Origin: Ilumatobacteraceae bacterium
GTDB lineage: Bacteria > Actinomycetota > Acidimicrobiia > Acidimicrobiales > Ilumatobacteraceae
Length of the DNA: 38,026 nt
Direction of reading: 5' to 3'
Assembly (NCBI GenBank): GCA_030727685.1
Contig: JANRBC010000029.1
Location: 1 to 38,026, forward strand
Numbering within the stretch: position 1 is the stretch's first letter; every line of letters starts with the position of its first letter. Of this stretch, positions 7,229-9,272 are shown piece by piece. The notes under the pieces are model-generated. The model did not search any database, had not been told where the DNA came from, and was given only the letters and a program-made list of their open reading frames with translations. A program made the translations under genes and the position numbers.

Positions 7229-7954
7229 TCAGCGCTCAGGGCGCTCAAAAACTGCGACCGACTTGAGACGACGCTCAAGGTGATGCTCCATGCATTTTGT
7301 TGCAAGATCTGAGACCTCTCTGGTTGCCGCACTTTCTGGCAAAGAAAGAGCCAAGTTCAGTTGCCCGCCAACGATGTTCTGAATGATCTTGATCGCAGCA
7401 CTCGAAATAGACGCGCCACTACGACAATTTTGGCATTGGCCACCACCGCGAAAGATGTCGAAGGCAACAATTTGATCGCCAGGCGCCCCGCAGCCCACAC
7501 ACTTCTCGACATGGGCACCTACACCTTCAACAACTAGCAACTTAAAATAAAATGCTGCGAGCACCAGAGTCGAATCATTTTCTGAGAGCCACTGCAATGC
7601 ACCCACCAGCATTTTGTAAAGATGCTGTGTCGGCTCGGCCTCCATACCGAGTTGGTCAACTGCTTCAAGCATTGCCAGCCCCCGTGTGAGCCTGTCTAAA
7701 TCGGTATACAGACCACGCGCGCTCGTAACAAGTTCGACTTGGCTAACTGTGTCGAGATCTTTGCCTTTGCTCAATAAAACATCGATGTGACTGAGCGGCT
7801 CTAGGCGCGCGCCAAAACGTGACGACATTTTGCGCACACCGTTTGCGACAGCACGAACCTTGCCGTGCTCTTCAGTCATCATCACGATGATGCGATCAGC
7901 CTCTCGTAAGTCGTAAGTGCGCAAGACAATCGCCTTGTCGCGATACAAACTCAT
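7229..7954 (-). CDS. recO: DNA repair protein RecO
   Basis: 241 aa. N-terminal OB fold (AIVLRTYDLREADRIIVMMTEEHGKVRAV) and a zinc-finger-like CVGCG...CQNC. The ATG overlaps the upstream stop (ATGA). Confidence 0.9.
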   Translation of the reverse strand: MSLYRDKAIVLRTYDLREADRIIVMMTEEHGKVRAVANGVRKMSSRFGARLEPLSHIDVLLSKGKDLDTVSQVELVTSARGLYTDLDRLTRGLAMLEAVDQLGMEAEPTQHLYKMLVGALQWLSENDSTLVLAAFYFKLLVVEGVGAHVEKCVGCGAPGDQIVAFDIFRGGGQCQNCRSGASISSAAIKIIQNIVGGQLNLALSLPESAATREVSDLATKCMEHHLERRLKSVAVFERPER

Positions 7955-8541
7955 GAATCAACTCCTCCGAAGCGACGATCGCGACGTTGAAAGTCATCAA
8001 TTGCCATTTGAATATGTTCAACATCACACCTAAGCCATGGAACATTCAAAAAAACAAGTTCGCTATATGCAAGTTCCCACATCAGCGATTCGGGAACCTG
8101 TGTTGGTGAACCCAAAATTAAAACTAAATCAGGTTCGCCCGAGGCAGGCGCAAGCAAGGTTGCGGCAAGTTTGTCTTCATCTATTTCTTGACTACCCAAT
8201 TGAGCCACCGCGTTGACAAATCGTTCTTGTCCGTCAGCACAAGTATCAACCACGACCATCAAACCTTGTTCGCCGATCACCGAAACACGATCTCCCGAGC
8301 GCTGACCTCCAAAAACAGAGATAATCGAATTACAAATCACCGAACGCTCGGTCGCGTTTGCGTGCCCCGAGTATGGATAAATCGATAGCCATCGAACACC
8401 GACGCCACCGACCGACTTAACGAGTGCATCAATTTGAAGCTTCCACTCATTTGGGGTTGTTTCGAGCCATTCAGCGATGGTGCCCGCACACACTAAGACA
8501 TGAGCCAAATCACCAGTTGTGTCGCGAGAGGTCTTAACCAC
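7951..8541 (-). CDS. Degenerate UPP-synthase-like (cis-prenyltransferase fold) protein. Catalytic motifs are lost and the C-terminal RXG tail is retained.
   Basis: 196 aa. It aligns by eye to the neighbouring UppS. HVLVCAGTIAEW replaces HVACIMDGNGRW, RWLSIYPYSG replaces AYLTVFGFST, and PDLVLILGSPTQVPESLMWELAYSELVF replaces VDVLVRTSGESRISNFLLWQINVAKIYF. It ends AIDDFQRRDRRFGGVDS. GTG start with GAGAGA upstream. Translationally coupled to recO. Confidence 0.7.
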   Translation of the reverse strand: MVKTSRDTTGDLAHVLVCAGTIAEWLETTPNEWKLQIDALVKSVGGVGVRWLSIYPYSGHANATERSVICNSIISVFGGQRSGDRVSVIGEQGLMVVVDTCADGQERFVNAVAQLGSQEIDEDKLAATLLAPASGEPDLVLILGSPTQVPESLMWELAYSELVFLNVPWLRCDVEHIQMAIDDFQRRDRRFGGVDS

Positions 8542-8590
8542 TGTGACATTCTCTCACTTTCAAACGACCCGACTCGATAACCAGAGTTGT

Positions 8591-8596
8591 TAGCGT
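8591..8596 (+). promoter_or_regulatory. Candidate -10 element (TAGCGT, TANNNT type) placing the TSS at the uppS ATG, implying a leaderless mRNA
   Basis: TAGCGT lies 7 nt upstream of the ATG at 8604, and no Shine-Dalgarno is present. The pattern is typical of actinobacterial leaderless transcripts. This is sequence inspection only. Confidence 0.25.
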
Positions 8597-8603
8597 TCAA
8601 TTA

Positions 8604-9272
8604 ATGAGTTCGAAACCTCTACATGTCGCCTGCATTATGGACGGCAACGGCAGATGGGCTCGAAAACGGGGCCTGCCACGAACAGCTGGCCACACCGCAG
8701 GCGAAGAGTCACTCGCCGATGTTGTGCGTGCGGCGTCTAAGCGCGATGTCGCGTATCTGACAGTTTTTGGTTTCTCTACCGAGAACTGGGTGCGCCCGCG
8801 GGCAGAGGTGCGTCATATTCTTGGCCTGCATAAAAAACTTTTCGGCCGCATCGCCGAACTGAATGAAAATAATGTTCGCGTCAATTGGATAGGTCGCCCA
8901 TTCGATGAACCAGGCTCGCGCACGCCCCTATATGTGCAACGAGCAATTCGAAAAGCAATCGACGAAACCAAAACGAATACCGGCATGGTGTTGACGGTGG
9001 CATTTGACTACGGCTCGCGCAGCGAACTAACCAGAGCAGCCAAGCGAATCGTGGCCAACCAAACCGAACTTACACCCGCGAATCTACAGCTCAATCTTTA
9101 CGACGCTTCTTTGCCACCAGTTGACGTACTTGTTCGAACCTCAGGAGAATCTCGAATCTCAAATTTTTTGCTTTGGCAGATAAACGTGGCGAAAATTTAC
9201 TTCACAGACCGACCTTGGCCCGATTTTGACTCCGTCGAACTTGATGCCGCAATTGCATTAGCCAAAAATTAG
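8604..9272 (+). CDS. uppS: Undecaprenyl/decaprenyl-diphosphate synthase (cis-prenyltransferase), lacking the C-terminal RXG motif
   Basis: 222 aa with HVACIMDGNGRWA, AGHTAGEE, FGFSTENW and VRTSGESRISNFLLWQ all intact. The protein ends ...DAAIALAKN* just before the position where RRFG normally occurs. Confidence 0.9.
   Translation: MSSKPLHVACIMDGNGRWARKRGLPRTAGHTAGEESLADVVRAASKRDVAYLTVFGFSTENWVRPRAEVRHILGLHKKLFGRIAELNENNVRVNWIGRPFDEPGSRTPLYVQRAIRKAIDETKTNTGMVLTVAFDYGSRSELTRAAKRIVANQTELTPANLQLNLYDASLPPVDVLVRTSGESRISNFLLWQINVAKIYFTDRPWPDFDSVELDAAIALAKN

Follow-up and report, generated by a model that had tools for sequence, protein, structure and literature searches.

Divergent genes A and B of Ilumatobacteraceae, a predicted two-subunit cis-prenyltransferase with complementary RXG and catalytic residues

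Organization of the A-B locus

The Ilumatobacteraceae belong to the Actinomycetota and are widespread in fresh water, in the sea and in soil. The window analysed here, a stretch of 38,026 nucleotides from the genome assembly of a freshwater member of this family (contig JANRBC010000029.1), contains two divergently oriented genes, referred to as A and B, which both encode proteins related to undecaprenyl diphosphate synthase (UPPS) and which are located between recO and a gene for a helicase (Table 1). The open reading frames, coordinates and strands given for both genes in the preliminary description agree with the ORF list, and inspection of the sequence reproduced the 62-bp gap between them and the ATGA overlap formed by the stop codon of B and the recO start codon (7954..7952 on the minus strand). 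The boxes found in the spacer were derived from the aligned spacers of 13 close relatives, while a scan of the 62 bp for the sigma-70 consensus gave no match. On the other side of the pair, the helicase gene starts 34 bp past the end of A. In relatives that do not possess A, this helicase gene and the uppS-like gene lie next to each other in divergent orientation; at locus L089, the order is helicase gene (minus strand), cis-prenyltransferase-like gene (plus strand) and recO. B is currently labelled as "undecaprenyl diphosphate synthase", as "family protein" or as "hypothetical", and A as a complete synthase.

Table 1. Position and description of the genes and sequence features of the A-B locus, numbered from the first nucleotide of the window.
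Feature	Position	Strand	Description	Evidence
recO	7229..7954	-	RecO_N and RecO_C domains, TIGR00613; marks the ancestral uppS position	
Gene B	7951..8541	-	196 aa, GTG start; predicted non-catalytic accessory subunit	ORF, profile, AlphaFold2 model
C-terminal tail of B	7954..7989	-	QRRDRRFGGVDS; RXG is R190-F191-G192	Translation
Glu161 of B	8059..8061	-	Region-V Glu kept (WELAYSELVF)	
Degenerate region I of B	8467..8502	-	HVLVCAGTIAEW; Gly20 at the catalytic Asp position, His14 invariant	Translation
Divergent A-B spacer	8542..8603	.	62 bp; each start codon preceded, at 6-8 nt, by a conserved TANNNT-like box	
Gene A	8604..9272	+	222 aa; predicted catalytic cis-prenyltransferase subunit	ORF, profiles
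Region I catalytic motif of A	8640..8660	+	DGNGRWA, includes catalytic Asp13; invariant in 55/55 orthologues	Translation
Lys197 of A	9192..9194	+	At the conserved region-V Glu position (AY[SA]E) of homodimeric enzymes	
C-terminal end of A	9216..9272	+	WPDFDSVELDAAIALAKN and stop; the stop lies four residues short of the RXG arginine position	Translation
DinG/YoaA-like helicase gene	9307..11214	+	NF053712 (E 7e-153); downstream of A	

Conserved regions of the two proteins

Protein A is a member of the cis-prenyltransferase superfamily (PF01255, UPPS fold) according to its Pfam profile match, which covers profile positions 1-209 of 219 with an E value of 1.4e-66, so that the part missing from A is the RXG end only. 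It passes the TIGR00055 uppS model (E 2.8e-60, score of 203.6 against a cut-off of 109.55) and scores below all of the NF0114xx equivalog cut-offs. Besides the region I motif, its translation contains the FSTENW and RTSGESRIS motifs and closes with AIALAKN, without a Gly, in line with the earlier observation that a complete catalytic set is combined here with an RXG-less end. The alignment of A with the Micrococcus luteus UPPS reaches residue 240 of 249, right ahead of the RHRRFGG tail of that enzyme, and a three-frame check revealed no RXG in any frame downstream of A. The closest relative of A in the PDB is the Thermobifida fusca cis-prenyltransferase (E 6e-50, 48% identity), and its nearest solved relatives, the enzymes of T. 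fusca, Streptococcus pneumoniae, Enterococcus faecalis and M. luteus, are medium-chain synthases of C50-C60 carrier lipids. A homologue search with A returned close orthologues only.

Conservation was assessed in 55 species genomes or contigs that were picked via B, and in 80 metagenome contigs that were picked via A in an independent scan. Fourteen catalytic and substrate-binding residues (D13, N15, R17, R26, H30, F57, S58, N61, W62, R64, R178, E182, R184 and S186) are kept in all 55 A orthologues, and the same 14 in every A of the metagenome set. An RXG was found in none of the A tails of either set (0/55 and 0/80), which disposes of the concern that the 3' end of the gene could be an artefact and identifies it as the real end. 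Catalytic subunits of the DHDDS/hCIT class are defined by catalytic and substrate-binding residues kept in regions I-V and by the absence of a C-terminal RXG (10.1101/139675), and A-type proteins belong to this class in 55/55 and 80/80 cases. Neither A nor B carries the catalytic residues together with RXG on one chain, as the homodimeric bacterial UPPS do, whose catalytic residues comprise the Asp of DGNGRW, the Asn and Ser of FSTENW and the Arg residues of RTSGExR.

In protein B, regions I-III are degenerate, whereas regions IV and V are conserved and the RXG tail is kept. Its match with PF01255 comprises only profile positions 129-219 of 219 (E 2.3e-11, over the Pfam gathering score), B lies far under every NCBIfam cut-off, and in a BLASTP comparison with A it displays 20% identity across 44 aa (E 0.001). 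The set defined by the E cut-off consists of 858 database proteins that match B at E<=1e-3. The claim that B aligns with A along the whole fold was borne out at the level of structure and profiles only: significant sequence alignment of B to A or other UPPS is limited to the C-terminal ~90 residues, but in its AlphaFold2 monomer model (pLDDT 79.8, pTM 0.78) B has a cis-prenyltransferase fold, the best Foldseek matches of this model being UPPS structures (E 3.6e-8, probability 1.0, TM 0.5-0.58), and a profile of the B family matches NgBR/NUS1 across residues 36-191 (E 2.3e-5 to 2.7e-5). The fold search suggested in the preliminary description has thus returned both UPPS and NgBR/NUS1, and B is placed in the superfamily by PF01255 and Foldseek. 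Residues 192-196 of the monomer model have a pLDDT <50, a low confidence that is expected if the tail segment becomes ordered on a partner.

The loss of catalytic residues from B, which had been noted together with its retained tail, is general: in all 56 B-type proteins, the catalytic Asp is replaced by Gly, the residue equivalent to R178 by Val or Ile and that equivalent to S186 by Pro, and the tail contains RRFG. H14, G20 and W25 are present in region I of 56/56 proteins and, together with W33, belong to the invariant residues of the degenerate N-terminal half. The segment that contains R26 and H30 in A is shortened by seven residues in B, where counterparts of this Arg and His are missing, and region III reads YPYSGHAN. 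In the C-terminal half, WELAYSELVF and RRFGG are invariant among the B-types; the RRFGG tail is the most strongly conserved segment of the protein, R187, R189, R190, F191 and G192 being identical in 56/56, and is part of a C-terminal end that hardly differs from the E[FY]QRRDRRFGG end found in single-gene Acidimicrobiales UppS. Accessory subunits of the NgBR class are characterized by degenerate regions I and III, a missing region II, conserved regions IV and V and RXG, and an invariant Gly (bioRxiv 10.1101/139675), and according to these sequence criteria B belongs to that class.

A further difference concerns the Glu of region V. Position 197 of the A-types is occupied by Lys (32), Arg (14), Gln (5), His (2), Asn (1) or Thr (1) and by Glu in 0/55, whereas Glu161 and Tyr159 are found in 56/56 B-types. 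Human DHDDS is likewise without the region-V Glu (WQTSHSCLVF), while NgBR keeps the equivalent residue (PWHIRLTEIVS). The region-V Glu is, on the strength of these alignments, a second complementary site, split between B and A in the same manner as between NgBR and DHDDS.

Conservation of the pair and its origin

All B-selected loci with enough surrounding sequence share the arrangement A <-> B -> recO, and in the A-selected set B was found divergently adjacent, upstream of an RXG-less A, in 65 of the 66 informative contigs; for the A-type gene of locus L146, B is missing from the 1.8 kb that precede it. Twenty-five other Acidimicrobiales genomes, all without B, possess a single normal uppS that unites DGN and RRFG(G) (25/25), and this complete gene immediately precedes recO in the same orientation, in the slot that is filled by B here. 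The phyletic survey therefore supports the expected association between RXG-less A and B, and none of the refuting conditions of the preliminary description that could be examined computationally went against the proposal. No cultured carrier of the A-B pair appears among the source names, all of which are MAG or metagenome labels.

Chance is excluded, since more than 130 independent loci show this arrangement of motifs. The dN/dS values of B (0.04-0.12 at unsaturated dS), A (0.03-0.06) and recO (0.03) indicate that B is under strong purifying selection and is functional. Over the same loci, identity ranges from 40 to 91% for B and from 65 to 94% for A, B thus diverging faster, and faster evolution of accessory cis-prenyltransferase subunits is described in PMC12998183. 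That the pair represents a frameshifted or truncated uppS beside a decaying pseudogene copy is hardly conceivable. Nothing but the unusual look of the two genes would suggest it, whereas more than 130 independent assemblies, produced by different projects, contain both ORFs intact and with conserved length, dN/dS is far under 1 for each of them, and the alternative frames contain no RXG; conservation, dN/dS and the frame check together refute the artefact or pseudogene interpretation.

The same data bear on the question whether A could be a self-sufficient homodimeric synthase with no need of RXG, B being a pseudoenzyme with another role, for example in regulation, in the binding of a lipid or diphosphate, or as a recO-linked scaffold. 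We regard this as unlikely. The new positive charge of K/R197 at the Glu position might replace the missing Arg in cis, and the invariant H14, G20, W25 and W33 of B could reflect a new function; however, conservation within B is strongest in the RRFGG tail, although the protein has no active site of its own, and B and RXG-less A co-occur near-perfectly and in adjacent positions. To our knowledge, the only role of an RRFGG tail is at the active site of a cis-prenyltransferase. The requirement for RXG is not universal, as MM_0014 of Methanosarcina mazei has none and is active alone as a homodimer (PMC8131916), but A resembles this enzyme only remotely (E 1.8e-15, as compared with 6e-50 for UPPS-type enzymes), and its AIALAKN end lacks Gly and has no counterpart of the C-terminal TLGG of MM_0014. 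An assignment of A to autonomous RXG-less cis-prenyltransferases of the MM_0014 type was consequently rejected. Mutations of RXG cripple both E. coli UPPS and an archaeal heteromer, and the E. coli RXG mutants cannot support growth (10.1101/139675).

Concerning the origin of the pair, the C-terminal half of B shows 36.6% identity to the resident Acidimicrobiales UppS versus 21.7% to A, and B and the resident UppS have the LWE.AYSELVF signature in common. Based on these shared lineage signatures, B looks like a degenerated copy of the resident uppS. We also considered B as an orthologue of NgBR/Nus1 and rejected this, since the B-family profile favours bacterial UPPS (E 2e-14) over NUS1 (only 2e-5), since tail and signature are those of the resident UppS, and since an N-terminal membrane segment is missing, B beginning directly at the first beta-strand region without a hydrophobic N-terminal segment. 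The likeness of B to NgBR/Nus1 is, as judged from these affinities, convergence and not orthology. For protein A, identities amount to 43-47% with single-gene Acidimicrobiales UppS and to 48% with the T. fusca enzyme. B would have evolved in place from the uppS that resided upstream of recO, and A would be an extra copy, acquired by duplication or transfer, that was inserted between the resident uppS and the DinG-like helicase gene, after which both copies would have lost complementary parts. The best reading of the comparisons is that a heteromeric cis-prenyltransferase has arisen independently in the Ilumatobacteraceae.

The proposed enzyme and its relation to known systems

A and B probably encode the two subunits of one heteromeric cis-prenyltransferase. 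The sole working active site would be located on A, with the Mg-binding Asp13, the hydrophobic tunnel and, for the binding of FPP and IPP, residues of Arg, His, Ser and Asn, whereas A lacks the C-terminal Arg-x-Gly segment, which closes the site and binds diphosphates. B is predicted to be a catalytically dead paralogue and has kept the dimerisation half (regions IV and V) and the invariant RRFGG tail. The A:B dimer would be built like a UPPS homodimer, with the tail of B crossing the interface and completing the active site of A; because the catalytic residues and RXG reside on different polypeptides, one active site per A:B pair is predicted. Such action across the interface has precedents: in the homodimeric decaprenyl diphosphate synthase (DPPS) of the actinobacterium Mycobacterium tuberculosis, the RXG arginine (Arg292*) acts on the active site of the partner subunit (PMC6450523), and in NgBR/DHDDS the RXG Arg works in trans (PMC7573591). 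We infer the physical heterodimer, the insertion of the tail, the dependence of activity on both proteins, the product and essentiality, and the "obligate" heterodimer with one active site of the preliminary description is taken up here at the same level, as a prediction.

The product of the A-B enzyme is most likely a polyprenyl diphosphate of ~C50-C55, the carrier lipid of the cell wall. It is quite improbable that the heteromer is instead dedicated to a special product, for instance a longer lipid or a short Z-prenyl primer, with the essential carrier lipid being supplied by another complete UppS in the genome. Many Actinobacteria do possess two or more cis-prenyltransferases, e.g. Rv1086 and Rv2361c of M. 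tuberculosis (PMC6450523), and for a second degenerate lineage, which occurs in other Acidimicrobiales, the surrounding 10 kb contain no partner, so that cis-prenyltransferase genes are not always clustered there; but B sits where related Acidimicrobiales have their single uppS, no other PF01255 gene was found in the 38-kb window or in ~135 flanking regions, and A is closest to the C50-C60 carrier-lipid synthases and not to Rv1086 (E 8e-23).

Taken as a whole, a somewhat better than even case can be made that the Ilumatobacteraceae make their essential carrier lipid with an independently arisen heterodimeric cis-prenyltransferase, formed from a resident uppS that degenerated in place and a tail-less extra copy, which would have converged with DHDDS/NgBR in at least two places, namely RXG and the Glu of region V, would be the first heteromeric cis-prenyltransferase of a bacterium, and would offer a soluble, anchor-free model of the human enzyme. 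In textbooks and recent reviews, bacterial cis-prenyltransferases are regarded as homodimers and heteromers as an archaeal and eukaryotic invention (PMC13586052, PMC12998183); in agreement with the novelty claimed earlier, we found no literature on a bacterial heteromeric cis-prenyltransferase, although earlier reviews or phylogenies may refer briefly to NgBR-like proteins of bacteria. If the proposal is true, this architecture evolves repeatedly via duplication and complementary loss, and the present case would be a clear one, with the ancestral single-gene state preserved at the same locus in sister lineages. The pair would also provide a small system, soluble and without membrane anchor, in which the action of the RXG tail and of the region-V Glu across the dimer interface can be studied. 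Such a study would be relevant to the glycosylation disorder associated with NgBR R290H. The annotation of A and B would be corrected, and the finding would also be of interest for the way in which the abundant, uncultured Actinobacteria of lakes make their cell wall.

Among known systems, the pair resembles human DHDDS/NgBR (NUS1) and yeast Rer2/Srt1-Nus1, in which a catalytic subunit with all active-site residues and no RXG is combined with a dead paralogue that is degenerate in regions I-III, keeps its dimerisation half and bears the C-terminal RXG, the tail of the NgBR-type subunit entering the active site of its partner (PMC7573591; 10.1101/139675). The accessory subunit evolves faster in both cases, and the segment EPDLVLILGSP of B resembles DPDLVLKFGPV of NgBR. 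In contrast to NgBR, B has no N-terminal transmembrane region, and A ends at the last helix without a C-terminal extension, whereas the C-terminus of DHDDS wraps round the complex; furthermore, A and B are encoded side by side in divergent orientation, their product is presumably a C50-C55 carrier of the bacterial type and not a dolichol precursor, and the pair is known from sequence.

The archaeal heteromers (MA3723/MA4402 of Methanosarcina acetivorans, MM_1083/MM_0618 of M. mazei and Af1219/Af0707 of Archaeoglobus fulgidus) are biochemically proven and share the prokaryotic two-subunit design, an NgBR-like protein giving RXG to an RXG-less catalytic subunit and the product being a glycosyl carrier lipid. 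They belong to another domain of life, and a separate origin of A-B, a pair known from its gene sequences, is suggested by the affinity of B to actinobacterial UppS. MM_0014 is RXG-less like A; unlike A, it is an autonomous homodimer with TLGG in the place of RXG and an unusual O-prenylation activity, while A has no tail of that kind and comes with an RXG-bearing dead paralogue (65/66 informative A-selected contigs). With the homodimeric UPPS and DPPS (E. coli UppS, M. luteus UPPS, T. fusca cis-prenyltransferase and M. tuberculosis Rv2361c), A-B would have fold and chemistry in common, but in those enzymes catalytic residues and RXG are found on each chain, giving two active sites per dimer. 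Finally, chain elongation by two different subunits is also known from the bacterial heteromeric trans-prenyltransferases, the medium-chain hexaprenyl and heptaprenyl diphosphate synthases (PMC13586052), which in contrast have an unrelated all-helical fold and a different mechanism, with no donation of an RXG-type tail.

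The divergent genes A and B and their products

Gene A, encoding the predicted catalytic cis-prenyltransferase (cis-PT), and gene B, encoding its predicted non-catalytic paralogue, are separated by 62 bp and flanked by minus-strand glyS-recO and a plus-strand DinG/YoaA-like helicase gene; the G+C content of the window is 49.7%. The stop codon of B overlaps the recO start codon (ATGA), the coupling announced in the preliminary description, and in other Acidimicrobiales this slot upstream of recO is occupied by uppS. A synteny block, trpC (IGPS) - ABM monooxygenase-like - glyS - recO - B - A - DinG-like helicase, with B and A divergent, extends across Ilumatobacteraceae contigs (window compared with L084 and L090/L091, loci of distant B relatives that include a 2.13-Mb metagenomic scaffold, L091).

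Coordinates of the gene pair, neighbouring features and related loci
Feature	Coordinates	Strand	Description
B	7951..8541	-	196 aa, GTG start
A	8604..9272	+	222 aa
Segment outside the shorter call of A	8604..8636		many database entries give A as 211 aa from Met12
Divergent spacer	8542..8603		conserved boxes near both start codons
Box AAGTGAGAGAAT	within 8542..8603		6-8 nt before B start; conserved in spacers
Box TAGCGT	within 8542..8603		7 nt before A ATG; conserved in spacers
Compared synteny block	4739..11214
Membrane-protein paralogue	14128..16200	-	690 aa, 30% identical to the 695-aa protein; adjoins era
era	16210..17049
695-aa membrane protein	L011:2804-4891		polytopic, between A and B
Region of A-type gene lacking upstream B	L146:438-2531		A-type of 229 aa, no RXG
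Second dead cis-PT-like lineage	L083:359-1042, L085:1914-2576, L088:10001-10702, L089:10001-10792		other Acidimicrobiales

The product of A matches PF01255 (E 1.4e-66, profile positions 1-209 of 219 only) and TIGR00055 (E 2.8e-60), and carries the motifs DGNGRWA, FSTENW and RTSGESRIS. Its translation ends in WPDFDSVELDAAIALAKN at the stop codon. The protein can be aligned to M. luteus UPPS as far as residue 240 of 249, directly after which the M. luteus enzyme displays RHRRFGG, containing the C-terminal Arg-x-Gly (RXG) motif. No RXG was found in the other reading frames past the end of A, and 34 bp separate its stop codon from the start of the helicase gene. As a start at Met12 would drop the first beta-strand (LHVACIM), directly ahead of DGNGRWA, the 222-aa start appears more plausible. 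The boxes in the spacer suggest leaderless, back-to-back transcripts for A and B; a sigma-70 consensus scan of the spacer gave no match.

B matches only positions 129-219 of PF01255 (E 2.3e-11) and ends in QRRDRRFGGVDS. The claim that B aligns with A over the whole fold holds at the level of structure and profiles: Foldseek with the AlphaFold2 model (mean pLDDT 79.8, pTM 0.78; pLDDT below 50 in the final five residues) returned E. coli UPPS as top match (E 3.6e-8, probability 1.0, TM 0.50-0.58), and a profile of 15 B orthologues matched bacterial UPPS structures (best E 2.2e-14) and, over its residues 36-191, nearly its full length, human NUS1/NgBR (E 2.3e-5 to 2.7e-5). In direct BLASTP the similarity of A and B is weak (E 0.001). 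Residue equivalences were established by eye on an alignment anchored on conserved strands, and confirmed by the family census described below: B has Gly20 for the catalytic Asp13 of A, Glu24 for Arg17, YSGHAN for FSTENW and ILGSPTQVP for RTSGESRIS, while region II (Arg26, His30 segment) is seven residues shorter in B and without counterpart residues. B thus has a cis-PT fold without an active site. The NgBR class is defined by a missing region II, degenerate regions I and III, and conserved regions IV, V and RXG (bioRxiv 10.1101/139675), a definition that B fits by its sequence.

Conservation and co-occurrence of A and B

The database contains 858 relatives of B at E<=1e-3, with the invariant tail D[FY]QRRDRRFG[GS][VI]DS. 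Among 50%-identity representatives, dozens of clusters of 180-215 aa proteins were related to B; those matching all or nearly all of it lack DGNGR, SxEN and RTSGE in every case, and nearly all the un-shortened proteins end in RR[FY]GG. B patterns, run against a single genome for each species, yielded 80 loci. In L001-L054, labelled mostly Ilumatobacteraceae or acIV freshwater MAGs, minus-strand A, divergent plus-strand B and recO follow each other wherever the contig extends far enough upstream of B (L013 and L014 end short of A, and L053 starts within B), and the A orthologues (67-94% identity) all end without RXG. Distant B relatives (38-42% identity) show the same arrangement in L081, L084, L087 and L090/L091.

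Residues D13, N15, R17, R26, H30, F57, S58, N61, W62, R64, R178, E182, R184 and S186 are kept in 55/55 A-types, none of which has RxG in its last 15 residues; G20, V/I142, P150 and the RRFG tail are found in 56/56 B-types. The complementary pair put forward in the preliminary description, including the lost catalytic positions of B, is confirmed by translation, PF01255 matches and census. The reverse scan, through A only (patterns ACIMDGNG, TVFGFSTE), gave 80 metagenome contigs, whose A-types all lack RXG (80/80). The suggested co-occurrence was borne out: B lies divergently upstream in 65, 13 contigs are too short to tell, and two others are L097 and L146. This conserved pattern rules out that the 3' end of A, or the pair as such, is an artefact.

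L097 belongs to a sub-clade (L011, L013, L014, L095-L097) with a polytopic membrane-protein gene between A and B; its 695-aa product matches no Pfam or NCBIfam family and may be connected with the use of polyprenyl phosphate. In L146, the sole case without upstream B, A is preceded by an unrelated same-strand 459-aa ORF without Pfam family, and the contig ends 50 bp past A.

Both genes are under purifying selection, with dN/dS values, for pairs with unsaturated dS, of 0.03-0.06 (A), 0.04-0.12 (B) and about 0.03 (recO). Over the same genomes B diverges faster (40-91% identity versus 65-94% for A), as PMC12998183 describes for eukaryotic accessory versus catalytic subunits.

Origin of the pair

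Microthrixaceae, IMCC26207 and other Acidimicrobiales (L055-L077, L080) possess a single uppS of 231-241 aa, having DGNGR as well as the tail E[FY]QRRDRRFGG; where the contig includes recO, this uppS lies directly upstream of it on the same strand, the position of B. The C-terminal half of B, tail excluded, shows a mean identity of 36.6% to these enzymes versus 21.7% to A, and the signature LWE.AYSELVF is common to B and to them. On these grounds B is best read as a degenerated resident uppS. Since in L089 the helicase gene lies divergently next to the uppS-like gene, A in the window would have been inserted between the helicase gene and B. With about the same identity to Acidimicrobiales UppS (43-47%) as to the T. 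fusca enzyme (48%), A may have arisen by duplication or by transfer.

A second, less degenerate dead cis-PT-like lineage has HVAWVAGG for HVAIIMDGN at the N-terminus, QTGGD for RTSGE and the tail EYQRRDRRYGGLV. Downstream of its genes lie a small membrane ORF, recO, a radical-SAM gene and glyS, and there is no cis-PT partner within 10 kb.

A predicted heteromeric enzyme and its known counterparts

In Mtb DPPS, an actinobacterial homodimer, the RXG arginine is Arg292* of the counter-subunit, which contacts Asp76, Mg-bound waters and substrate phosphates (PMC6450523), and the tail of human NgBR passes the interface to form part of both DHDDS substrate sites (PMC7573591). RXG mutations inactivate E. 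coli UPPS, a Giardia cis-PT and the M. acetivorans heteromer (10.1101/139675). With RXG acting in trans in this way, neither site of an A:A dimer would have it, B:B would bring tails and no site, and A:B would be the sole combination with one complete site. A could be self-sufficient, as is the RXG-less MM_0014, functional alone (PMC8131916), or another complete cis-PT may be encoded elsewhere in the same genomes; a heteromer would be the only known explanation for the invariant tail of B. Every test run upheld the heteromeric interpretation, which is supported, and we consider it quite probable that A and B form a heteromeric cis-PT. The interaction of the two proteins and its stoichiometry, the need for both of them and the length of the product are inferred.

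A second site is divided likewise. The region V Glu (AY[SA]E) is a conserved feature of homodimers, among them the 26 single-gene cis-PTs of our sample (L055-L080); mutating the equivalent residue weakens both IPP binding and catalysis in the UPPS of E. coli and of M. luteus. The Glu is kept in B (E161 in 56/56) and never found in A-types, whose residue 197 is K in 32 cases, R in 14, Q in 5, H in 2, N in 1 and T in 1. The PDB chain of human DHDDS reads WQTSHSCLVF, without Glu, and that of NgBR PWHIRLTEIVS, with Glu retained, pointing to the same split in two independent heteromers.

Eukaryotes and some Euryarchaeota are known to have heteromeric cis-PTs; a literature search of incomplete coverage returned no bacterial example and nothing on Ilumatobacter carrier-lipid synthesis. 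The A/B pair shares its logic with DHDDS/NgBR, but differs in its apparently independent origin, in Bacteria.
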